Shown one piece after another: positions 11,021 to 31,459 of a stretch of 32,000 nt of DNA. Every line of letters begins with the position of its first letter. The first letter of the stretch is position 1. The stretch is from Candidatus Saccharimonadota bacterium (GTDB taxonomy: Bacteria > Patescibacteriota > Saccharimonadia > Saccharimonadales > UBA4665), in contig CP025011.1 of assembly GCA_002952755.1 (NCBI GenBank), forward strand, positions 210,001 through 242,000, read 5' to 3'. The position numbers were made by a program, and so were the translations under genes. The notes beneath the pieces are model-generated. The model had not been told where the DNA came from and searched no databases. It saw only the letters and a program-made list of their open reading frames with translations.

Positions 11021-13288
11021 TTAAGCTATATATGCTGCCCATACACCGATGTCGCCACTTTTCGCAGTCACGAGAGGTGTCCAGGTGAGGTTGGTAGTGT
11101 CCGAGACGGTGGGAACGCCGCCTGGGCAGACTGCAAGTACAACCAGTAACGTCCCGTGGCTAATGCTAGCGCTGATGTTGTCGGTTGATTGTTGTTGGTC
11201 GACATTGGTGCCGCTGACTAAGTAGTTAAGCGTGCCGCTTGCAAGGATTTCGGCCGCTGCTATGCCATTAAACTGGCCTTGCTCGTTGGTCGCTCCGACG
11301 GTAATGGGAGTCCCGGAAGTCGTCTTCGATGTGGTAATGAATGTCTGATAGCTACAGCCGCCATCCCCGCTGCCGGCAGAAAGTACGGTAACGTTGGAGG
11401 TTGGTGTCGGATCTGCACTACCGGGAAAGATTTGGTTGACCCCGACGATATAGCTGCCGGTTGCCGAGGGTGTAATAGTGGTCGTGAGCGCCTGTCCGGC
11501 CGAACCTCCATCTGTCGAGCCCGTTTGGCCGTTTTGAGCGGAGGCGGCATTGGTGAAGGCCAGAACACTCATAGCCGCGACTTGGCCGCTACCCACCGAC
11601 ACGGACACTGTGGTTGTCGGGGGCAAACCTGCGCCATAACCGGTCACAACGGAGAGGAACAGCCATTTGCCAAGACTGGCGCTGTAAGAGAAGGCGACCT
11701 TGCTCATACTGGAAGCCGTGGACGGTAGTGATGGCTGGCCAGACGTGCCAAACACGAATGCACTTCCCCAGGAAAACGTCCTGTTGCCAGTACTATCTTG
11801 GGTTATCTCGTAGCTGATGGTGTGGCCATCTATGGGATTGAGCGGTGTTGCAATCGTCCATCCAGAGGCCACGAGGGTCACACGGAACACACTTCCCAGC
11901 GAGGCGTCTGCCGTGACATTGCCCCCTGACTGGCTGACAGTGACTGCCCCCTCAATGGGGCCGAACGCGTACCCGGTGCCAGAGAGATTATACGGACCGC
12001 TGGTGCCCGTAGCAGCATTACTCGAGATAGTTGTCCCGGTACACGTGCCGGATGTCTGCACACCGTAGACCTGCTGGCCAGGCCCTGGCCCTGCCGAACT
12101 GCCGCTGCTGGCAATGCCAACGTTATTCGCAACACTGCAGTATGTCGCACCAGTAATGTTGATCGCAACGCCGGTGCTGCTGCCTGTCGAGTTGCTATCA
12201 CACTCGCAGCCGCTGACGTTGGTATATTGGCACCCGTTTAGATTAAAGCCATGGTTAGAAGACTGTTGGGATTGGCATACTTCAAATGTATTGTTCTTGC
12301 CGACGAGCTCGAAACCGTTTTTTGTAACGTCCCACACATGCGTCGCGTTATTATAGCCAGCCCAAAACGATTTACAGCTTGTAACCATGTTGTTCCAGCC
12401 GGCCATATAGAAACCATGGCCCCCCGACGGTCCACTATTACAATGACTGATAAACGAGTCCGTGCAGCCGCCCTCGAAGTAAAATCCGGTACCTGTTGCT
12501 TGGTACTGACTGCATCCGCTGACTAACAAGGCGCGCGTGTTGGCGCCAAAATGAAACGCATCGCCATCCGAGTTAAAGCTGAATACGTTGAGCACTCGAT
12601 GCATGCAGTCAAAAGGGTCACCACCGGCCCAACCGGTATTATCGAGTAAGATATGGCCCGCAGCGGCTCCGCCGTAAGGAGTGCTGAGTGCGAGATCGCG
12701 AATTGTTACCTGGCGGCTAGTGCTCGGATGGGTCAGGGTGATGAGGTAGCCGGTTGTCCCGGCCTTTGCTTGGAGAATTGTAGCCCATCCAGCGCCGCAG
12801 AGCGTGACATTTGTGTCGAGCGTTATATTCGAAATGACATAGGTCGCAGCGGGGAGGTAAACCACCCCACCACCGGCAGTAGCGGCAGCGCTCAGAGCGG
12901 CTTGGATTGCTGGGGTATCATCGGTGCTGCCATCTCCTACGGCGCCATACTGTTTGACATTGAACCAGTCGGTAAGCCCATTGGCATTAGGTTGGAGTGC
13001 GGTCCCCGCAGCTGTCAGCGCTGTTTGCACTGAGGAGGTTAAGTCTGAGGCGGGGATGCCACTCACAGGCTTCGAGTACTTTGCAGCTATGGCTGCGATA
13101 GCGGATTGTGTAGTGCCGTCTAAGTCAGTTGCGGGAATGCCGGAACCCGGCTTGCTGTATGCTCCGGCGGTAGTTACGGCGCTCGGCTGGAGCGTTCCAT
13201 CACCATTATGGGCGACCTGAAGAAAAGAATTTAAGACTTGCCCCCAGTCGCCATCATCGCCCCCAACATAGGGTAGACGCGTCGTCAT
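11021..13288 (-). CDS. phage tailspike/depolymerase-like right-handed beta-helix protein (pectate-lyase superfamily)
   Basis: FNVKQYGAVGDGSTDDTPAIQAALSAAATAGGGVVYLPAATYVI is the Pectate_lyase_3 signature. The N-terminus has GDDGDWGQVLNSFLQ plus a duplicated YSKPxSGIPAxDL tail-fibre-type motif. Beta-helix-type Gly/Ser/Asn-rich turns follow, then a beta-rich C-terminal domain. No signal peptide is evident. Confidence 0.75.
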   Translation of the reverse strand: MTTRLPYVGGDDGDWGQVLNSFLQVAHNGDGTLQPSAVTTAGAYSKPGSGIPATDLDGTTQSAIAAIAAKYSKPVSGIPASDLTSSVQTALTAAGTALQPNANGLTDWFNVKQYGAVGDGSTDDTPAIQAALSAAATAGGGVVYLPAATYVISNITLDTNVTLCGAGWATILQAKAGTTGYLITLTHPSTSRQVTIRDLALSTPYGGAAAGHILLDNTGWAGGDPFDCMHRVLNVFSFNSDGDAFHFGANTRALLVSGCSQYQATGTGFYFEGGCTDSFISHCNSGPSGGHGFYMAGWNNMVTSCKSFWAGYNNATHVWDVTKNGFELVGKNNTFEVCQSQQSSNHGFNLNGCQYTNVSGCECDSNSTGSSTGVAINITGATYCSVANNVGIASSGSSAGPGPGQQVYGVQTSGTCTGTTISSNAATGTSGPYNLSGTGYAFGPIEGAVTVSQSGGNVTADASLGSVFRVTLVASGWTIATPLNPIDGHTISYEITQDSTGNRTFSWGSAFVFGTSGQPSLPSTASSMSKVAFSYSASLGKWLFLSVVTGYGAGLPPTTTVSVSVGSGQVAAMSVLAFTNAASAQNGQTGSTDGGSAGQALTTTITPSATGSYIVGVNQIFPGSADPTPTSNVTVLSAGSGDGGCSYQTFITTSKTTSGTPITVGATNEQGQFNGIAAAEILASGTLNYLVSGTNVDQQQSTDNISASISHGTLLVVLAVCPGGVPTVSDTTNLTWTPLVTAKSGDIGVWAAYIA

Positions 13289-19241: not shown

Positions 19242-19318
19242 TGGAGGGCCAGGAGGGGCTCGAACCCTCGACATTCTGCTTAAGAGGCAGACGCTCTAAC
19301 CAACTGAGCTACTGGCCC
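19242..19318 (-). tRNA. tRNA-Lys (anticodon CUU), CCA encoded
   Basis: The reverse complement reads GGGCCAG-TA-GCTC-AGTTGGTTA-GAGC-G-TCTGC-CTCTTAA-GCAGA-ATGTC-GAGGG-TTCGAGC-CCCTC-CTGGCCC-T-CCA. This is a complete 77-nt cloverleaf with anticodon loop CT-CTT-AA. Confidence 0.92.
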
Positions 19319-20082: not shown

Positions 20083-21891
20083 TTATTGGCCGATAAAACC
20101 GTAGGTGTAAGGGTCATATTCCTCGGTAGTTGGGGCGGGAGTGGGGTTGGGCTTGGGGGCTGCTGGCGTTGCTGGTTGTGCAGCCACTGGTTGAGTATTG
20201 GGATCTAACCCAAGGTCAAGTATCTGGTTGATAGAATGAATAAGTACTTCGCGCGGCCGTGCGCCATCCGCAGGTCCTACAATTCCCTGTTTTTCCATTT
20301 CCTCGATGAGCCGCGCAGCCCGGCCATAGCCGATGCGTAAGCGCCGCTGCAGGAGGCTGGTGGAAGCTTTGCCGCCCAGCACCACAACTCGAATCGCCTC
20401 TTTGTAAAGTGCCTCGTCGGCAGCTTGGCTGTTTGTGTTTGGCGTATTCCAGTTTTGCGGAATGAATGAGCTTGGGTCTACGGCGGGAGCTTCTTCGGTG
20501 GGCGATTGGGTAGTGAGGAAGGAAATACTCATTTCCCGCGAGGCATAGTCTGTGAGCCATTCCCGTCCGATTTTGCCCTCCATGAGTGTACGCAGGATGC
20601 GATCGGACGCCAATTGGTCGGCTAAGCGTTTGAGCACTTCGGGATCGGCGTGCTTGAGTTTCTGCATCTTTAAAGACAGAGCGGTTGGTTGATCTGACAA
20701 GGCTGGATTATACAGTTTCCAGACGGCAATATCATCGGCAGACCAACTGCTGACAATCTCGCAATATTCCCGGTCCTCATGGGTGTCGTCGCCAATGAGG
20801 AGCCCGTAAAAATCACGCCAGCTGAGCTGCAAACTCCTGGTAACAGCAAAGATGCCTACGGGTAATCTGGCTGAGGTGCTGCCGCTGTTTTGCCGGTAAA
20901 TAGCACTATCGGTGATTAGGCGGTTAATAAAGCGAATGATGGTGCGCGGATTGTATTGGCAGACGCCGCCTATAACAGAGGAAATTGGCGCCAGATCGCG
21001 GGCGGTGCGTTTATCGCCCAGGTCGGCAATGATGTGTTTGGTGAAGTCGGCGATGCGGTTGGTGTGGGGTGGAATGTCGAATGACAGCTGGATCATCTTG
21101 TCGAGATAGGCGCTGCCGTCATAATGAGTGATGCCATACTGTTTCTGATATTTGGACTGCAAGTATTCTTCGATGACCACGCGTGAGGCACCCAGAATAA
21201 AGATAAAGCCTGGCTGCGAGAGGACCAGCTTAATACCTTCCAATAAGCGTACGGCATTTTCGGGGAAGCAGCGGTCCAGATCATCAATAAGCACCATGAT
21301 GGTAATATTTCGCGGCACGGCATTGTTGCTGATGGAACGGAATGCATCAAAAATGTTCTCGTACGGATCATCGTGGGCATAACCGTACATGCGGGTCTTG
21401 CGAAGGTGTTTGAAGGTCTCTCTAGCGGCACCAAAGCCGATCTCTGCCTCAACGTTGGCAAAACTGCCGGGCAATCCAAGCTTGCCCTTGAGCTTGAAGG
21501 CCCCTACTAATGCCTCAAGCGCGTCAATCAAGGTCTTACCGGCGTGTCCGGTTCGCAGCAGTAGATCTTCCTGTGCCTTGAGGGCTTCGGTGATGCTCTT
21601 AATGAGCGGGACGATCGGGTACTCGACCTTTTCGAACATCCAGGCGTTAAACCAGACCGGCACGACGATATGGTCTTCGGTACCTATATTTTGGACGCGT
21701 TGTTCAACCATCTTCATGAGACTGGTTTTGCCCATGCCCCATTCGCCGAAGATACCTATAGTAAACGGGCCACGCGTGCCTTCGACGATGCGGGCGATGA
21801 CGTCAGCATAGCTGGAAAATCCGAGTGCATCGGTGCGCGTGTTATCGAGTTCGGCAATGGCTTGGTCGGGGATTAGGCGGATGGGCTGCAT
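20083..21891 (-). CDS. soluble KAP-family P-loop NTPase fused to a C-terminal FtsK-gamma winged-helix domain
   Basis: Walker A is GIFGEWGMGKTSLMK (21721-21747), followed by VWFNAWMFEK. Walker B is IMVLIDDLDRCFPENAV. Residues ~492-551 (20239-20418) read DEALYKEAIRVVVLGGKASTSLLQRRLRIGYGRAARLIEEMEKQGIVGPADGARPREVLI, which closely resembles the FtsK gamma domain. A Pro-rich tail follows. Confidence 0.85.
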   Translation of the reverse strand: MQPIRLIPDQAIAELDNTRTDALGFSSYADVIARIVEGTRGPFTIGIFGEWGMGKTSLMKMVEQRVQNIGTEDHIVVPVWFNAWMFEKVEYPIVPLIKSITEALKAQEDLLLRTGHAGKTLIDALEALVGAFKLKGKLGLPGSFANVEAEIGFGAARETFKHLRKTRMYGYAHDDPYENIFDAFRSISNNAVPRNITIMVLIDDLDRCFPENAVRLLEGIKLVLSQPGFIFILGASRVVIEEYLQSKYQKQYGITHYDGSAYLDKMIQLSFDIPPHTNRIADFTKHIIADLGDKRTARDLAPISSVIGGVCQYNPRTIIRFINRLITDSAIYRQNSGSTSARLPVGIFAVTRSLQLSWRDFYGLLIGDDTHEDREYCEIVSSWSADDIAVWKLYNPALSDQPTALSLKMQKLKHADPEVLKRLADQLASDRILRTLMEGKIGREWLTDYASREMSISFLTTQSPTEEAPAVDPSSFIPQNWNTPNTNSQAADEALYKEAIRVVVLGGKASTSLLQRRLRIGYGRAARLIEEMEKQGIVGPADGARPREVLIHSINQILDLGLDPNTQPVAAQPATPAAPKPNPTPAPTTEEYDPYTYGFIGQ

Positions 21892-24254: not shown

Positions 24255-24626
24255 CTACTTTTCGTGCAGTTTGAGCTTCACGAGTTCGGCAACTTGGCGT
24301 GGCGTCATGGCTGCCTTGAGAATGACGGCATCAACGCCCAAGGTGCGGACTTCCGGTGGAATCTCTTGTTCGCCCCGGTTGGTAAGGATAATCACTTTTA
24401 TGTTCTTGCCCCAAGCGGCTTTCCGAAGTTTGGCGAGCATTTCTTCACCGGTCATGATGGGCATCATCAGGTCGAGCAAAATAATATCGGGGCGCATTTC
24501 CTCAGCAAGCGCTAAGCCAAGTTTGCCATTTTCGGCCGTTTCGACGGTGTAGCCCTCGGCCTCAAATTTAATACGATACATTTGCGAGATGGCGGCGTCA
24601 TCTTCGACAATTGCAACTTTGCTCAT
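24255..24626 (-). CDS. stand-alone response-regulator receiver (CheY-like), no output domain
   Basis: It has VAIVEDD ... RPDIILLDLMMPIMTGEEM ... VIILTN ... KA and is 123 aa. A GAGGGGA Shine-Dalgarno sequence lies upstream. Confidence 0.85.
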   Translation of the reverse strand: MSKVAIVEDDAAISQMYRIKFEAEGYTVETAENGKLGLALAEEMRPDIILLDLMMPIMTGEEMLAKLRKAAWGKNIKVIILTNRGEQEIPPEVRTLGVDAVILKAAMTPRQVAELVKLKLHEK

Positions 24627-24685: not shown

Positions 24686-25072
24686 CTAGGCTGTGTTCAT
24701 GGCTAATACCTCTTGCACAATGGCGACGATCTGCGCCGGCGTATGATGCGCCTTGACGACATAGCGATCGACATGTAAAAAACGAAGCGCTGGCGGCGCT
24801 TCATCTTTACTGATGTTGGTGAGAATGATGACTCGAACGTCGCTGCCCCACCTTTTCGATCGTAGGTGGGCCAGCATTTCTGACCCTCCCATCACCGGCA
24901 TTAGTAAGTCCAGCAGGACGATATCCGGCCGGATGTTTTCGATGATGCGTAAACCCTCGATACCATTGCCGGCCGCGTAGGTTTCAAAACCTTCGCGCTC
25001 CAGTTTTAATTTATACAAAAACTGCAAGTCGTCATCATCTTCGACTACGACTGCTTTTATGGGTGATAGCAT
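24686..25072 (-). CDS. stand-alone response-regulator receiver (CheY-like), paralogue of the previous gene
   Basis: It has VVVEDDDD ... RPDIVLLDLLMPVMGGSEM ... VIILTN ... KA and is 128 aa. Confidence 0.85.
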   Translation of the reverse strand: MLSPIKAVVVEDDDDLQFLYKLKLEREGFETYAAGNGIEGLRIIENIRPDIVLLDLLMPVMGGSEMLAHLRSKRWGSDVRVIILTNISKDEAPPALRFLHVDRYVVKAHHTPAQIVAIVQEVLAMNTA

Positions 25073-25277
25073 AGAGTACTTTTGTAATACCCCGTTATAT
25101 TTTTAAATCCTAACTATCAGTAGTACCACACCGTGGCCGGAGGGAGCAAGGGAATTATTAACTTTTGAACCTTCTTTGCAACAGAAAATAATCTTTCCTA
25201 GGTGAAAATATTTATTCCCATGCCGTTAAGGCGCATATGGCTTGCACTGTTTCTAGCCCGGCTACGTGAGGAGGCTA

Positions 25278-25306
25278 TTGACTTATTAGCTACTCTATAC
25301 TAAAAT
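25278..25306 (+). promoter_or_regulatory. sigma70-type promoter of element E1 (upstream of the ABC operon)
   Basis: The sequence is TTGACT (25278-25283), a 17-nt spacer, then TAAAAT (25301-25306). It shares the 10-mer TTGACTTATT with the promoter at 27664. Confidence 0.55.
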
Positions 25307-25347
25307 AGCTTTATATTCCTGAAATGGAGTTGGAAATTAGAAGACAG

Positions 25348-25390
25348 CGGCACACTGAGCATACGCCCAGGTGTCGTTTTTTGCTTTTTT
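25348..25390 (+). terminator. intrinsic-terminator-like hairpin plus T-runs inside the ABC operon leader (E1)
   Basis: cggcac(a)ctg...cag-gtgtcg pairs (25348-25376, one G-U pair and one bulge), followed by ttttttgctttttt. It ends 14 nt before ATG 25405. Confidence 0.45.
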
Positions 25391-25404
25391 AGGTATCGCT
25401 TACT

Positions 25405-26886
25405 ATGACTACAAATAATAATTTATTACCTCCCGACGGTATACCATCAATTGAAAGCGTCCAGGCAGACTTAGACCGCCGCGATAGAGACCAAGATCGT
25501 CGGCATCTTTTGGGTGCTGTGGGCCTCGGCATCGTTGCGGTTGGCCTCGTTGCGGGCGATGTTCTCGCCCAGCGTTACGGCATCGATGGACGCCTCAGCC
25601 ATACGCTGCCGTTTTTGGCGAAGGCGCAAGAGGCTATTAATAATGTAGATGATACTCTCGTGCCTGTAGGAGAGTACGGCATTCCAGCTGCCATTGGATT
25701 CGTCGCATCTGTAAAAGCACTCGCTCCTTTTAAGGGCGCTGCCCGTTTCGCCGATGGCTTTTCCGCTCGTGAGCCTAGCGCTGATGGCTCAGAGCGCAAG
25801 CGTCGTTTTGGTGGCATTCGTCGGAGAGTAGGTATGGCGATGGCTGGTGCCTCACTCGCTACTTTTACGGCGGGCATTGCTACTGAAGTGGGGCGTGGCC
25901 CGGATCGTCCCATAGACGCATTTGATGCACTTGTTCCTGGCAATAGCGTAGTGGTGCAATACAAGGAAGCGATGCCTATGGTGCAGAGCAGCTTGAACGT
26001 GGCCCTTGCGCAACAGATAAGGAAAGACGCAGCAAAGAAAAGCATCCCTACACATGCCTTCGGATTAAACTTAGGCACATACGAGTACAAAGGGCATGCT
26101 TACACTGATTTATTCGCTGGTGTAGAGACGAATGAGACGTCGCCTGTGCACTGGAATGGGGCAAACTGTAACGATGTTCCGGTAATTCTTGATAGCGCTT
26201 CTGGGGTTCCTAGGGGCGCTAAGCTATCGGTAAACGGCATTTCTGTCCAAGTGGTGGGGACTACTGAGCGTACATCGTCTATGAATCGTGTAAGCGGCAT
26301 CATAGACGAAAAGGCGCTGACGACATGCCTTGAGCAAGACTCCAATAAACCCCCGTACGGCATGACCATGGAAACCGATCCCGATACTGCACAGCAGCTT
26401 GTGGATGAAGCGCACGCCGAAACTGGCTTAACAGCTCCGGCGGCAGTTATTACGAAAGACCAAGAGAAGCAAAATAGTGAGCTTTTCTGGGATGCAAATG
26501 TGAAGCCAATCACCAGCGTGCTGTCGTTCGCAGCTATTGGTCTTGCCGGGATGGCTATGGCCAGCGCCATGGGCAGCCGCTTGCTGCGTAACCGGCGTGA
26601 GCTGGGTGCCCGTTTGGCCGCAGGGGTCTCAGTGAATACATTACGTCTTGCGGAAATCGTACGAGCTACAAAAGACGGAGTGGTTGCCGGCGTAGGTGGC
26701 GCTATAGTGGGCATACCATTGGCGATTATCCCAAATGCCATCCAGCAAGGTTTTGATGCGGGTGCAGGCGTCAGGGAAGCTGCCGTAGGTATGGCCGTAG
26801 GCCTAGCAGGCTCGGTGGGCGGCGCTGCATTTAAGCTCAGGAGACTAAGAGAAGTTGCTAATCCTGAGGAAACAACGAGGATATAA
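25405..26886 (+). CDS. ABC transporter permease, FtsX/MacB type (one N-terminal TM, large extracytoplasmic domain, C-terminal 3-TM FtsX domain)
   Basis: TM1 is LLGAVGLGIVAVGLVAGDVLA. A soluble region of about 300 aa follows. The FtsX-like region reads RRELGARLAAGVSVNTLRLAEIVRATKDGVVAGVGGAIVGIPLA. Confidence 0.7.
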   Translation: MTTNNNLLPPDGIPSIESVQADLDRRDRDQDRRHLLGAVGLGIVAVGLVAGDVLAQRYGIDGRLSHTLPFLAKAQEAINNVDDTLVPVGEYGIPAAIGFVASVKALAPFKGAARFADGFSAREPSADGSERKRRFGGIRRRVGMAMAGASLATFTAGIATEVGRGPDRPIDAFDALVPGNSVVVQYKEAMPMVQSSLNVALAQQIRKDAAKKSIPTHAFGLNLGTYEYKGHAYTDLFAGVETNETSPVHWNGANCNDVPVILDSASGVPRGAKLSVNGISVQVVGTTERTSSMNRVSGIIDEKALTTCLEQDSNKPPYGMTMETDPDTAQQLVDEAHAETGLTAPAAVITKDQEKQNSELFWDANVKPITSVLSFAAIGLAGMAMASAMGSRLLRNRRELGARLAAGVSVNTLRLAEIVRATKDGVVAGVGGAIVGIPLAIIPNAIQQGFDAGAGVREAAVGMAVGLAGSVGGAAFKLRRLREVANPEETTRI

Positions 26887-27626
26887 TGAGTAACATTGTC
26901 TCGCAGCCTATAGCCGAACTCCGTAATGTGGAGGTGACCGATGGTGATCAGCCTATTCTCCGCGGCGTTTCACTGGGGGTTGAGCGTGGAGAGCGACTCG
27001 CGATTACGGGACCCAATGGTTCCGGTAAATCTACTATCTTAGGTGTAATGGACGGCATTATAACTGCAAGTGCCGGCGAAACGTATGTATTTGGGAATAA
27101 TATGGCCGAGTTGGACCAGAAACAGCGGGATGAGTTGGTACGCACACGAGTCGGTGTAGGCTTTCAGACCTCAAACCTTGATGAGGGGAGAACTGTCTAT
27201 GACAATCTGGTGAGTTTGCGAGATACGACCCGCTCCCTAAGCCGGACTGAACGCCGCCAGCAGAACGGGAGGCTGGCCAGCCTCGTCGTATCATTAGGGC
27301 TGCACGACAAGCTGGATCAAATCGCTCACACCCTGTCGGGTGGTGAAAAACAGCGCGTAGCGATCGGTAGATTGCTGCTGCCAGATCCGGAACTCATATT
27401 GCTGGACGAACCGACGGCGTCTCTGGACTCCGCCGGTACCTATGGCAAAACACATATATATGAAGTAATCGGCGACTTTGCTGCGCGATCGGACGCCACA
27501 GTAGTAGTGGTAAGCCATGATGCGGAAGCTCTGAGGTTTACCACCCGTGAACTGCAAGTTCGCGACGGTTCCATAGTGTACGATGCTCCTTCTATAGACC
27601 TGGCAGGATACGGGGCCAATCCGTAA
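26886..27626 (+). CDS. ABC transporter ATP-binding protein
   Basis: It has Walker A GPNGSGKST, Q-loop GFQT, signature LSGGEKQR, Walker B LLDEPTASLD and H-loop VSHD. The start overlaps the permease stop (TAATG). Confidence 0.9.
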   Translation: MSNIVSQPIAELRNVEVTDGDQPILRGVSLGVERGERLAITGPNGSGKSTILGVMDGIITASAGETYVFGNNMAELDQKQRDELVRTRVGVGFQTSNLDEGRTVYDNLVSLRDTTRSLSRTERRQQNGRLASLVVSLGLHDKLDQIAHTLSGGEKQRVAIGRLLLPDPELILLDEPTASLDSAGTYGKTHIYEVIGDFAARSDATVVVVSHDAEALRFTTRELQVRDGSIVYDAPSIDLAGYGANP

Positions 27627-27663
27627 CATGCATGTTATGTGACATTTATCACCAGTTTGCAAC

Positions 27664-27691
27664 TTGACTTATTGGAAAAAAGGTAGATAAT
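27664..27691 (+). promoter_or_regulatory. sigma70-type promoter of element E2 (downstream of the ABC operon)
   Basis: The sequence is TTGACT (27664-27669), a 16-nt spacer, then GATAAT (27686-27691). Confidence 0.5.
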
Positions 27692-27735
27692 AATATGCAG
27701 TAAGTCTGAACAGGGCTTGCAGCTTAGAAGACTAG

Positions 27736-27776
27736 ATAGGCACCATCTTTCAAGAAGAGAATGGTGTCTATTTTTA
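27736..27776 (+). terminator. strong intrinsic terminator (E2)
   Basis: ataggcaccat (27736-27746) pairs with atggtgtctat (27761-27771), giving 11 bp with one G-U pair and a 14-nt loop. The sequence tttttat follows. Confidence 0.7.
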
Positions 27777-27822
27777 TATCGGAGTTTTGACAATTAGTGC
27801 TCTTTAGAGAAAGCGTATTTGT

Positions 27823-29214
27823 ATGAGCCTTACAGCTGACAGACAGACAGGGCATACCCTTGGGGGCGACATATCGCCTTTGCTACCTTTCGGGGTACTC
27901 CCTAATGAAAGTACTATCCTTGCCGAGGATCAGGTAGATGATGTAGCGGGTCTTGAGCCCTTTCCGCTCAATACGATTACGGCCGAGATTCCTATCGACC
28001 CCGATACACTAAACATTCCCGAGGATTTGCGACCACGCAGTATCGTACGGGTAGAGATGAAAGATCCCCAGGTCGAGGCGCTAGACCCAGATGACGTTGC
28101 TGCCGTGAGCGAGTGGGTACATAGTTTATCCACATATGTGAGGAGGCGCAAGGATAAAGGTGTCTACACACGCTTGCCTGGTTCCGCAGGTGGTACTTAT
28201 CTCGACGCAAACGGCCAGCATATAAACGGCCGGGCTAAAAAATATTGGGGCGATCAGGAGACTCGCGAAAGAGTTATTGCGGATATCGGCCCTGGAGCTG
28301 AAGCCTGGCTTGGTACGCTGCCAACTGGTCGGGCGCTTGAGATCGTCGAAGATATTTCACACGTACATGAGGTGCAAGACGATAAAGGTCGACACCTAGG
28401 CACTATGGATGAGATTGGTCGTTTAGTGATTACTGCCGCACCGGCTGCTCGTGGTATTCGTGCGCGCTATACCGATGAGGCCTATACCTTTGTAAATTTG
28501 GCAGAAGGATATGGTGGCACACTAGAAGGTAAGCGTATCGCTAGCCATGGATCAGGTTCGGCGCCAGGCCCAATGAAAGGTGCCCAGGTTATCCGAAGAA
28601 AGAATCCTGATGCTAGGGACCCTCATCTTTGGCATTATGATATTAACCCGCGAGCTATAGATGCCACTAGGGAATTGGCGCGAGGGGATATGGCTTTCGA
28701 AGGCCCGATAACGCAACGAGTGATGAATCTTCTTAATCCGCTCAAGATGGCAGTGGAAGGGTTGAAGTTACGATTGACAGGTAAGCGTCCGCATATCAGT
28801 GAATCCGAAGGCTTTTGGGAGTACATTGACCGCGATTTGCTACAAGCCATATGGAGTTCCAAGGGTGTGAAGGTACCGGAAAAACCAGAGGTTCGTTTCC
28901 TAAAGAGAGTGTACCGCGATGCCAAAGATGCAATTATGTTCAGCCAGATGCTGCCTGATGGGCCAGATCCAGAGTTCCTCGATGCCATAGGCTGGGGACA
29001 TGTAGTGTTGCGTGATGTGCCGACGGTACTACGGGCTATAAAAGAGGCTGGCATTCCACTTAGCCAGGTTGACGTACGAATTGTGGGGGACGGCTTCTGC
29101 GCTCGGTATATCGTAGATAAGCGTAGTGCCCCAAGTCGCCGTGAACGAGTGATACAGCGTGTAAAGCGCACCCTGGCACTCGGTAGTCTTGCCACTGCTT
29201 CTCAGAATACCTAG
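27823..29214 (+). CDS. hypothetical 463-aa protein; weak Rossmann/methyltransferase-like motif pair
   Basis: This is a long ORF with protein-like composition. ASHGSGSAPGP ... LWHYDINPRAIDATRELA faintly resembles SAM-MTase motif I and post-I. This has not been verified. Confidence 0.55.
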   Translation: MSLTADRQTGHTLGGDISPLLPFGVLPNESTILAEDQVDDVAGLEPFPLNTITAEIPIDPDTLNIPEDLRPRSIVRVEMKDPQVEALDPDDVAAVSEWVHSLSTYVRRRKDKGVYTRLPGSAGGTYLDANGQHINGRAKKYWGDQETRERVIADIGPGAEAWLGTLPTGRALEIVEDISHVHEVQDDKGRHLGTMDEIGRLVITAAPAARGIRARYTDEAYTFVNLAEGYGGTLEGKRIASHGSGSAPGPMKGAQVIRRKNPDARDPHLWHYDINPRAIDATRELARGDMAFEGPITQRVMNLLNPLKMAVEGLKLRLTGKRPHISESEGFWEYIDRDLLQAIWSSKGVKVPEKPEVRFLKRVYRDAKDAIMFSQMLPDGPDPEFLDAIGWGHVVLRDVPTVLRAIKEAGIPLSQVDVRIVGDGFCARYIVDKRSAPSRRERVIQRVKRTLALGSLATASQNT

Positions 29215-29266: not shown

Positions 29267-31459
29267 ATGACGCTAAGAATCGCATTACTCGTCATCGTGG
29301 GGCTATTCAATATTGTCCTCGCACTTATGGTTTTGGCGCGCGATCATCGAAAGCTCGTGAATGCTGCTTTTTTCGTGCTAGCCCTTAGTTGTGCGGCCTG
29401 GGTGTTTGGTATAGTCGGTTTTCTGACGGTGAATACCACACAATCTGCACTAGATTGGGCAAAGTTTTATTACGCCGCCCCTGTCCTATTGGTCGCATCT
29501 TCTATTGTTGTTGCGGACTTATTTCCTATCGGCAATGTAATTCACAAAAAGAAGATGGCCTTTCTCATAATGGCCTTAATCAGTGTGACAGTACCCCTTT
29601 TATTCGTGCCCGATTTTGTGACTGCCGGTATAGCTTATCGGAGTTGGGGCAAGGAAATCTTACTTAATAAGCCAGACTATTTATTGTATTCAGCCTATAT
29701 CGTTTTTGGATTCTGCTGGATGCTGACAATACTCGCCGGCAAGATGAAGAAAGAGCGGGGCATAAGTCGCGTTCAGGCCCAAATATTTTTTTACGGAACC
29801 ATGGGATCTGCGCTTTTTGGCACACTCTTCAATCTATTTTTGCCCTGGTTCGGCAACTATCGCCTTATTTGGGTAGGGCCACTGGCTACTAGTATATATT
29901 TGTCCACGACCCTTTATAGCATCGTAAAGCATAAACTTTTCGATATTCGCCTTATTATCGCTCGCTCCATTGGCTATATTTTGTCGATAGTAGCGCTCGG
30001 CACCCTGTTCGGCGCCAGTGCTTTTGTTATTGTTACTTTGGTTCTAAATGGGCAGGTTGCTTCAGTCTCAGAGCGGGTAGTTTCGGCCTCTTTGGCTGTT
30101 GCGTTGGCGATAATCTTCCGTCCGGTAAAGCGCTTCTTTGATCGCATCACGAATAAACTTTTTTATAGGGATGCATATGACACTCAGGTACTTATAGACA
30201 GCCTTAATCACATTTTGGTGGCGACAATCGAACTTGATACTCTTTTGTACGACACCTCAAAACTTCTCCAGGACACGCTTAAAGCTCAATATTGTATCTT
30301 TGCGCTATTCCCATTAACTAAGCAGCGCAAACAGGTTATTGGCACGTCCAAACAATTCGAGGATAGTGAGCTACTAAGAATCGCCCGGCTTGTGCCACGA
30401 GTGGCTCAAACCAAGGTTATTCTTACGGATAGTCTGGATACTATTCAAGACAAGCGGCTCTATATGCTGTTACAGTCGAACGATATTGCTATGCTTGGCA
30501 GTATTGGCACTAATATTAAGCAGGCCCACGAGATTTTAGGATATGTATTCCTCGGTCCTAAGAAAAGCGGTAATCCATACAGTAGTCAGGATCAAAAAGT
30601 TTTGGACGTTGTTGTAAATGAGCTGGTCATTGCTATTCAGAACGCTTTGCGCTTTCAGGAAATTGAGCGGTTTAACCTCACTCTCCAACAAAAGATCGAC
30701 GACGCTACCCGTAAGCTGCGCCACACCAATGACCGTTTAAGGGTCCTTGATCAAACTAAAGACGACTTCATTAGCATGGCTAGCCATCAGCTGCGCACCC
30801 CACTCACATCGGTGAAGGGCTATGTAAGTATGGTGCTCGATGGGGATGCCGGCAAAATTACCAGCCTCCAGCGTAAGCTGCTCAACCAGTCGTTTATTAG
30901 CTCGCAGCGGATGGTGTACTTGATTTCTGACCTCCTCAATGTTTCAAGATTGCGTACGGGTAAGTTTATTATTGAGGCGGTACCAACTAACCTCGCTCGG
31001 GTAGTCCAAGAGGAAATTGAGCAGCTGGTCGAGGCGGCGAAAAGCCGCGACCTGGAACTTACCTACCATAAGCCAGAGCATTTCCCGACATACATGCTGG
31101 ACGAGACCAAGCTACGCCAGGTAATCATGAACTTCATCGACAACGCCATGTACTACACTCCCAGTGGTGGGCATATTTCTATCACCATTGCCGATAAGCC
31201 TAAAACCATAGAATTTACCGTAACCGATGACGGTATTGGTGTGCCTACTCACGAGCAGCACCATCTCTTCACAAAATTTTACCGTGCGCCGAATGCCAAA
31301 CGGGCTCGGCCGGATGGTACCGGCTTAGGCTTATTTATGGCAAAAAAGGTGATTATCGCCCAAGGCGGCGCGATTATTTTCAAGAGCAGGGAAGATCACG
31401 GCAGCACCTTTGGCTTCACGTTTGCCAAAGACAAGCTGCAGCTGATAGAAACGAAATAA
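29267..31459 (+). CDS. sensor histidine kinase (multi-TM N-terminal domain, GAF-like linker, HisKA, HATPase_c)
   Basis: The H-box is ISMASHQLRTPLTSVKGY, the N-box is MNFIDNAMYYTP, G1 is DDGIGV and G2 is GTGLGLFMAKK. The first ~290 aa contain about 7 hydrophobic segments. AGGGGG lies upstream of the ATG. Confidence 0.9.
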   Translation: MTLRIALLVIVGLFNIVLALMVLARDHRKLVNAAFFVLALSCAAWVFGIVGFLTVNTTQSALDWAKFYYAAPVLLVASSIVVADLFPIGNVIHKKKMAFLIMALISVTVPLLFVPDFVTAGIAYRSWGKEILLNKPDYLLYSAYIVFGFCWMLTILAGKMKKERGISRVQAQIFFYGTMGSALFGTLFNLFLPWFGNYRLIWVGPLATSIYLSTTLYSIVKHKLFDIRLIIARSIGYILSIVALGTLFGASAFVIVTLVLNGQVASVSERVVSASLAVALAIIFRPVKRFFDRITNKLFYRDAYDTQVLIDSLNHILVATIELDTLLYDTSKLLQDTLKAQYCIFALFPLTKQRKQVIGTSKQFEDSELLRIARLVPRVAQTKVILTDSLDTIQDKRLYMLLQSNDIAMLGSIGTNIKQAHEILGYVFLGPKKSGNPYSSQDQKVLDVVVNELVIAIQNALRFQEIERFNLTLQQKIDDATRKLRHTNDRLRVLDQTKDDFISMASHQLRTPLTSVKGYVSMVLDGDAGKITSLQRKLLNQSFISSQRMVYLISDLLNVSRLRTGKFIIEAVPTNLARVVQEEIEQLVEAAKSRDLELTYHKPEHFPTYMLDETKLRQVIMNFIDNAMYYTPSGGHISITIADKPKTIEFTVTDDGIGVPTHEQHHLFTKFYRAPNAKRARPDGTGLGLFMAKKVIIAQGGAIIFKSREDHGSTFGFTFAKDKLQLIETK

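Follow-up and report, generated by a model that had tools for sequence, protein, structure and literature searches.

Two short elements, E1 and E2, were analysed in a 32,000 nt stretch of a Saccharibacteria genome (CP025011.1, assembly GCA_002952755.1, positions 210,001 to 242,000), hereafter the window, to which all coordinates refer unless given with a locus label. Each consists of a promoter, a short leader and an intrinsic terminator; E1 precedes an ATP-binding cassette (ABC) transporter operon, and E2 an adjacent operon for a methyltransferase-like protein and a seven-transmembrane (7TM) histidine kinase. A preliminary description of the window had put forward the two as paralogous units and read their layout as a sign of transcription attenuation. 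The best explanation of the sequences compared here is that E1 and E2 are two paralogous members of a leader RNA family, one seen to date in Saccharibacteria genomes alone. The family is new and of a known general kind, most likely a leader attenuator, possibly doubling as a small RNA (sRNA).

E1 and E2 and their relatives in other genomes

Homologous permease loci were drawn from GTDB genomes, metagenomes and individual contigs, labelled with L-numbers and searched to ~6 kb on either side. We tabulated 33 elements from 19 distinct genomes of Saccharibacteria, which belong to the candidate phyla radiation (CPR). The elements occupied two syntenic positions, E1-type copies lying upstream of the permease gene and E2-type copies upstream of the methyltransferase-like gene. 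Their common layout comprised a near-consensus sigma-70 promoter, a hairpin (P1) at the transcript 5′ end, a single-stranded core G-N4-UUAGAAGAC and a strong intrinsic terminator. All 33 promoters scored at least 9/12 and most at least 10/12, with conserved position, the call for L009a being uncertain. The core followed the −10 box by 26–36 nt in 30/33 elements (maximum 51 nt, in L008b) and preceded the terminator by 2–8 nt throughout. Terminators ranged from −12.8 to −31 kcal/mol with U-runs of 4–8, and mean z-scores were −5.8 for terminator segments and −1.5 for 5′ segments. As a negative control, 120 random matches to the 14-nt core in viral contigs were inspected and none (0/120) was accompanied by a terminator. 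The recurrence of the layout across genomes bears out the proposal that E1 and E2 are related promoter–leader–terminator units placed before adjacent operons, and homologous loci in related genomes retain the elements.

Within the window, both elements lie on the forward strand, and their promoters were the two best sigma-70-like matches in a 12-kb scan (20–32 kb of the window), each scoring 10/12. The E1 promoter (25278–25306) has a −35 box TTGACT (25278–25283), a 17-nt spacer and a −10 box TAAAAT (25301–25306). Its P1 hairpin, AUUCC / UGAAAU / GGAGU (25315–25330), was supported by folding and by covariation in the family, and begins ~8–9 nt past the −10 box at the predicted transcript 5′ end; because it holds one U·G pair, the structure is strand-specific. 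The E1 core, UUGGAAA-UUAGAAGAC (25330–25345, invariant G at 25332), was delimited by the position profile, matched the covariance model at 31.4 bits and was unpaired in both minimum free energy and centroid folds. It is followed by an intrinsic terminator (25346–25390) with a GC-rich stem at 25346–25378 and U-runs to 25390 (segment −16.1 kcal/mol, z = −3.6). The terminator ends 14 nt before the permease ATG, too close for a second promoter to fit, and none was detected.

The E2 promoter (27664–27691) combines TTGACT (27664–27669), a 16-nt spacer and GATAAT (27686–27691). Its P1, GUAAGUCU / GAACA / GGGCUUGC with three U·G pairs (27700–27720; fold z = −2.95, with covariation), likewise sits at the predicted transcript 5′ end. 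The E2 core, UUGCAGC-UUAGAAGAC (27717–27732, invariant G at 27719; profile and a 26.8-bit model match), shares its first 4 nt with the 3′ arm of P1. The E2 intrinsic terminator (27734–27776; segment z = −6.0) is the sole terminator after the ABC operon. Folded whole, the predicted leaders reached −21.5 kcal/mol (z = −2.6) for E1 and −27.7 kcal/mol (z = −4.0) for E2, and both transcripts showed the same order of a small 5′ hairpin, an unpaired stretch with UUAGAAGAC and a strong terminator.

The preliminary description had placed its landmarks accurately: TTGACTTATT at 25278–25287 and 27664–27673, both −10 boxes, CTGAA blocks starting at 25319 and 27706, TTAGAAGAC exactly at 25337–25345 and 27724–27732, intervals of 30 and 32 nt from the −10 boxes to the latter block, and of 14 and 46 nt from the terminators to the ATGs. 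Folding also confirmed the GC-rich terminator hairpins with T-runs in both elements. Among the four blocks it had listed as shared, TTGACTTATT and CTGAA do not hold as family features. TTGACTTATT is merely the −35 box plus a T-rich spacer and reads TTGACWTTTT in other genomes, and the CTGAA block is the loop and one arm of P1, conserved in structure, not in sequence. The conserved core in turn extends beyond the reported block to an invariant G 5 nt upstream of UUAGAAGAC.

Judged from the window alone, the likeness of E1 and E2 is marginal, barely above chance. Their local alignment score of 20 was not the highest, unrelated tiles reaching 24 (3175 tiles), and their ungapped identity of 30/70 compared with 24.5±2.4 in shuffles (P = 0.027). 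The statistical case for shared blocks is therefore weak inside the window, but across genomes core and layout are clearly non-random. A third exact TTAGAAGAC at 12255 was considered as a further element and rejected as a chance match, lying inside a 755-aa open reading frame (ORF).

Covariation of the 5′ hairpin and conservation of the core

A covariance model (R1) seeded with four sequences, all from other genomes, recovered 21 sites including E1 and E2, all on the gene strand and at the expected positions. There were no false matches in 212 kb searched on both strands, and E1 and E2 were the only matches in the window. A second model (R2) yielded 26 sites in 283 kb, all on the gene strand at E1 or E2 positions, plus one weak stray. 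With filters off, E1 and E2 were the sole significant matches in ~42 kb of the source genome. A separate site in the same genome, ~1.4 kb past the window end (L151 14144–14168), reads TGCTATAAT-N9-TTAGAAGAT upstream of a glycosyltransferase gene; it matched the model at 11.9 bits and has a promoter-like −10 box, with no P1 and no terminator. Either a chance 9-mer (~0.8 expected) or a third, degenerate copy of the core could account for it.

In the R2 alignment, which was fitted to the model's own structure, 97.5 % of P1 cells were paired versus 69.7 % in shuffles. All 5/5 P1 pairs change on both sides, and compensatory cells numbered 36 versus 11.3 in shuffles, a value reached by 0/500 shuffles; slid controls fell to 50–63 % paired. 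The start of P1 lies 7–9 nt past the −10 box, where the transcript is predicted to begin, and G·U pairs in P1 make its structure specific to the RNA strand. Its loops span 3–6 nt and are not conserved in sequence, several being of the GNRA type (GCAA or GAAA).

The core displayed the opposite pattern of constraint: a motif-anchored, ungapped alignment gave the consensus u-G-c-A-N-N-UUAGAAGAC-u-A, with 2.0 bits each at G(−5), U1, U2 and A6, and the core was unpaired in family folds. Variants occurred mostly in E1-type copies (UUAGUAGAC, UUACAAGAA and UUAGAUUAAAAC). The frequent UAA/UAG after the core belongs to the A-rich base of the terminator. The GAAGAC within the core is also a BbsI/BpiI recognition site, probably by coincidence.

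A core conserved in sequence and not in structure is also what a DNA-level operator would display, with TTGCAGYTTAGAAGAC bound by a transcription factor past the start site and the hairpins being incidental; the region clearly does carry DNA sites for a CRP-like factor as well. We nevertheless regard this as very unlikely because the core keeps 2–8 nt from the terminator while lying anywhere between 26 and 51 nt past the −10 box, its orientation relative to transcription is fixed, and P1 covaries and uses G·U pairs. The core is also neither palindromic nor a regularly spaced repeat.

The preliminary description had recognized no known riboswitch class, and Rfam searches agree. Using Rfam 15 at gathering thresholds, a tRNA was the sole match in the window. 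Relaxing to E ≤ 10 over 25000–28000 gave only a chance ssnA match on the opposite strand, and six ortholog loci at E ≤ 1 gave only a 23-bit match to a family with a 100-bit threshold. Literature searches turned up nothing on the motif, nor on any native riboswitch or sRNA in Saccharibacteria.

A riboswitch had been among the options first offered, and position and terminator do resemble a transcriptional OFF/ON switch, with a transporter among the downstream genes. Under this explanation P1 and core would form a small metabolite- or ion-sensing aptamer controlling the adjacent terminator. The structural evidence runs the other way. Even at E ≤ 10 no riboswitch family matched, and no multi-helix aptamer is conserved, there being a single helix with a variable loop (several GNRA). 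Pairing of upstream regions with the 5′ arm of the terminator, as a conserved antiterminator would require, gave a mean z of 0.03 over 30 elements. Alternative pairing of the P1 5′ arm (UCUU) with the AAGA of the core was rejected, cognate pairs averaging −1.87 versus −1.64 kcal/mol for non-cognate pairs (P = 0.11). Since there is neither antiterminator nor aptamer and the P1 loops vary, a metabolite riboswitch is most improbable.

Several further structures were tried and set aside. A loop–tail pseudoknot is excluded by P1 loops that vary in length and sequence, and a pseudoknot between a GCAA loop and a UUGC linker would need the tetraloop to be fully paired, which is sterically implausible; many members also lack it. 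The A-GAA-GA-C of the core resembles the bulged strand of a kink-turn and has no partner strand with GA. A leader peptide was dismissed on inspection: E1 holds a 22-codon ATG ORF, and none occurs in a conserved frame in E2 or the orthologs. ANTAR-controlled leaders carry tandem hairpins with hexaloops marked by A1 and G4, the second overlapping the terminator; the elements have one hairpin with a varied loop of 3–6 nt, and an ANTAR leader was rejected.

Probable terminator read-through or a possible trans-acting small RNA

The architecture expected of an attenuator was found in all copies, with promoter and terminator in 33/33 and a co-oriented ORF next. In 29/33 elements there was no second promoter scoring at least 9/12 between the terminator and the next ORF, and gaps from terminator to start codon were as short as 10–22 nt. 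The downstream genes of these 29 would therefore be transcribed by terminator read-through, and this dependence favours a leader attenuator. The attenuation originally proposed gains from this that most downstream genes lack a promoter of their own, as an attenuator expects; the regulation of termination is a further step. With neither an antiterminator nor an aptamer intrinsic to the RNA, a trans-acting factor is most likely what sets read-through.

As we picture it, a strong sigma-70 promoter would start the transcript and its first nucleotides would fold into the short, protective P1. The exposed 16-nt u-G-c-A-N-N-UUAGAAGAC would come next, with the terminator beginning 2–8 nt further on. 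By default most transcripts would end at the terminator as an RNA of ~70–80 nt, and the MacB/FtsX-type ABC transporter (E1) and the methyltransferase-like protein with the 7TM kinase (E2) would be made only via read-through. A trans-acting factor, probably a protein, would recognize the core beside the terminator base and either block or promote formation of the hairpin; the shared core would put the two operons under common control. Our tentatively preferred reading, which we hold at a little under an even chance, is thus that E1 and E2 are factor-dependent attenuators in which a factor, likely a protein, binds the core and sets read-through, and whose terminated RNA may persist as an sRNA. 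Regulated termination and a protein effector are what we infer from the observed layout, conservation, P1 covariation, scarcity of second promoters and lack of an antiterminator.

Known protein-dependent attenuators offer a partial precedent. Leaders controlled by PyrR, TRAP, HutP, LicT/SacY (through the ribonucleic antiterminator, RAT) or ANTAR proteins share with E1 and E2 a constitutive promoter, a short leader and an intrinsic terminator directly before an operon, and have a sequence-specific RNA site, single-stranded or in a hairpin, beside the terminator that a trans-acting factor reads, as we suppose here. Unlike them, E1 and E2 show no UAG/GAG repeats, RAT hairpin, dual hexaloops or PyrR loop, no antiterminator or anti-antiterminator helix and no nearby gene for a cognate RNA-binding protein.

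Several observations weigh against factor-dependent attenuation. A full promoter stands between terminator and gene in L009a, L009b, L021b and L148b, and 9/16 genomes have a conserved TTGACA box past the E2 terminator, for which reason some copies may be independent small transcription units. By analogy, a 5′ hairpin, an exposed seed and a terminator are also typical of trans-acting sRNAs. A domain search of the locus genes returned no candidate RNA-binding protein gene in the neighbourhood, and the search for copies spans only the ~6 kb on either side of each locus. L006, the closest sampled relative (permease C-terminal region 73 % identical), has another kind of leader in the place of E2, from which it follows that the element turns over even between close relatives.

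Some of these loci have features of their own. The TTGACA(A) box is perfectly conserved and lies 10–20 nt past the E2 terminator (27787–27792 in the window), and L005, L019, L023, L147, L149, L150, L009 and L021 have it at a matching offset, +63 to +78 from the motif. Only in L009 and L021 is there a good −10 box 17 nt further on; the others show T(A/G)TAG(G/A) or nothing recognizable at that place. The box may represent a second promoter, either in decay or dependent on an activator, or else an RNA element of the 5′ untranslated region. The L006 leader at the E2 position is longer (~150 nt), ends in a terminator and lacks the UUAGAAGAC core, and in L008, L013, L018 and L021 the permease is preceded by no leader at all.

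The main rival to factor-dependent attenuation is that E1 and E2 are sibling trans-acting sRNAs of ~70–80 nt, whose shared seed UUAGAAGAC and flank would pair with distant mRNAs or titrate a protein, their position before operons being incidental or reflecting shared promoter control. The architecture suits this as well, as each element has its own strong promoter, a stabilizing 5′ hairpin, an exposed conserved 16-mer and a strong U-tailed terminator, and no antiterminator was found. The second promoters after four elements and the TTGACA box past the E2 terminator point the same way, as does L009a, which keeps the exact core, seems to lack P1 (neither model matches, and its promoter call is uncertain) and has a downstream promoter. 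Sibling sRNAs, and sRNAs that arise from a 5′ untranslated region by premature termination, are comparable (OmrA/B, Qrr1-4 and Listeria SreA/B are examples). E1 and E2 resemble them as two paralogous RNAs of ~75 nt that expose an identical seed and have strong promoters and Rho-independent terminators of their own, and the terminated leader could act in trans. Unlike those sRNAs, the elements are tied to two fixed positions, each immediately before one of two constant sets of genes and always co-oriented with it, and the operons mostly have no promoter of their own (29/33, with gaps down to 10–22 nt). No conserved complementary target was found within ~6 kb either side of the 19 loci, where the only complementary site was a trivial self-antisense match. 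On balance, we consider sibling sRNAs possible and somewhat doubtful.

A further alternative is a boxB–boxA site for Nus factors, in which P1 would be boxB and the core a lineage-specific boxA bound by NusB/NusE (S10), the resulting complex altering RNA polymerase so as to read through the terminator. The order of promoter, hairpin (several GNRA) and conserved linear box is that of rrn leaders, and CUUAGAAGACU matches at 9/11 positions the spacer boxA of Firmicutes/Mollicutes (Gram-positive), CUUUGAAAACU. Published papers, several of them on mycoplasma detection, contain the string TTCTTTGAAAACT, which confirms no more than its occurrence. Both rrn and lambda nut signals share with the elements a hairpin with an unconstrained loop followed by a linear box early in the transcript. 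They differ in that the core fails the boxA consensus, precedes an intrinsic terminator and sits before transporter and sensor genes, not rRNA. Specifically, the core GCAGCTTAGAAGAC lacks TCTTTAA and so misses GYTCTTTAANA, a gamma-proteobacterial consensus, and CUUAG stands in place of the UCUUU run. Complexes of the rrn type act on Rho-dependent terminators and are not known to act on intrinsic ones. There is precedent for boxA elements regulating non-rRNA genes (PMC5725501). The resemblance was noticed post hoc, and an unrelated one to 23S rRNA arose just as easily; a Nus-factor site is accordingly quite unlikely.

That second resemblance is to the loop of helix 43 (H43, A1067) in the GTPase-associated centre: CUUAGAAG in the core equals the loop sequence GGCUUAGAAGCAGCC at 8/8 positions. 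GGCUUAGAAGCAGCC was confirmed in E. coli 23S rRNA, and L016b matches over 9 nt (UUAGAAGCA). The element differs in that it lacks both an H43-like closing stem and an H44 partner, its flanks being unpaired and its core single-stranded. An 8-mer match against ~4.5 kb of rRNA has a chance expectation of ~0.07, and the resemblance is probably coincidental. Since two unrelated resemblances turned up so easily, caution is due on each, and we treat them as leads only.

Neighbouring genes, DNA sites and biological meaning

The homologues of the locus genes, by the names of their sources, assign the organism to Saccharibacteria (TM7, CPR). The gene order around the elements is two response regulators on the reverse strand, E1, permease, ABC ATPase, E2, a 463-aa protein and a 7TM histidine kinase. 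The response regulators (24255–24626 and 24686–25072, − strand) were receiver-only in a domain search, with no output domain and no ANTAR domain in either, and the pair, divergent from E1, is syntenic in most loci. Downstream of E1 lie the FtsX-like (MacB-type) permease (25405–26886, + strand, 493 aa) and the ABC ATPase (26886–27626, + strand). The permease name rests on one source that calls a homologue 'FtsX-like permease family protein', two homologues matching PF02687 and a weak MacB match.

The operon after E2 comprises the 463-aa protein (27823–29214, + strand), with a divergent class-I S-adenosylmethionine (SAM) methyltransferase-like domain, and the 7TM histidine kinase (29267–31459, + strand). 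The window copy of the 463-aa protein had no Pfam match by itself. A profile of 13 positional orthologs matched the class-I SAM methyltransferase PDB 7v6h (1.5e-5), and 7/13 orthologs matched Methyltransf_31. The family evolves fast, with orthologs 15–29 % identical and the methyltransferase resemblance lying in the C-terminal half. Motif I of the window copy, HGSGSAPG, is apparently degenerate, and no domain was assigned to the N-terminal ~190 aa.

Further afield, the region ~6 kb upstream of E1 encodes tRNA-Lys(CUU) (19242–19318, − strand). A 602-aa protein (20083–21891, − strand) joins a KAP-family P-loop NTPase to a C-terminal FtsK-gamma (DNA-binding) domain, seemingly an unusual pairing. 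A ParE/Phd toxin–antitoxin pair follows the kinase operon just past the window end (L151 13243–13810).

DNA sites were also observed beside the elements. A CRP/FNR-like palindrome, TGTGACATTTATCACC, lies just upstream of the E2 −35 box (27638–27653, unstranded) and is a possible shared transcription-factor site. Across 283 kb, 11/16 palindromes of this type (TGTGA-N6-TCACA, at most 1 mismatch) adjoin E1 or E2 elements. Other sites were found at L003 5802 and 8149, L005 8213, L015 6232, L016 8209 and L148 7649, as well as L019 4700 and 7325 and L150 4886. In most cases the palindrome immediately precedes the E2 −35 box, and in L019 and L150 it overlaps the ribosome-binding site of the methyltransferase-like gene instead. 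The clustering of palindromes beside the elements suggests that a shared DNA-binding regulator may act in addition to the RNA element.

The interval that separates E1 from the response-regulator gene holds a conserved box, (C/T)AGTAGTA(C/A)CA(C/T), at 25118–25129, ~45 nt ahead of the start codon of the divergent regulator. The same box occurs at L014 5813, L015 3727, L016 5758, L147 4781, L003 5674 and L005 5760. As its minus strand reads TGGTACTACT, it may be an extended −10 box of the regulator operon.

The neighbourhood invites a more ambitious proposal, which we rate as unlikely, that the RNA is the missing output of the two-component system. The 7TM kinase would phosphorylate the receiver-only regulators, and one of these, or a partner such as the methyltransferase-like protein transcribed together with the kinase, would bind G-N4-UUAGAAGAC beside the terminator and switch on both operons. 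If true, this would be a route from two-component signalling to RNA antitermination without an ANTAR or DNA-binding domain, so far only in CPR/Saccharibacteria. Still more speculatively, the core might mimic the H43 loop or boxA, titrating or sensing a ribosome- or Nus-associated factor.

The regulatory RNAs of Patescibacteria/CPR are essentially uncharted. Covariation, recurrence in 19 genomes and the presence of two syntenic copies per genome make the family described here a well-supported, lineage-specific one. It is placed where it could control a conserved module comprising a 7TM kinase, two output-less regulators, a MacB-type transporter and a methyltransferase-like protein, and offers a concrete handle on how sensing is coupled to expression in reduced genomes. 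Inducible systems are lacking in this group (PMC11665869), and the element could serve as a native expression-control part.

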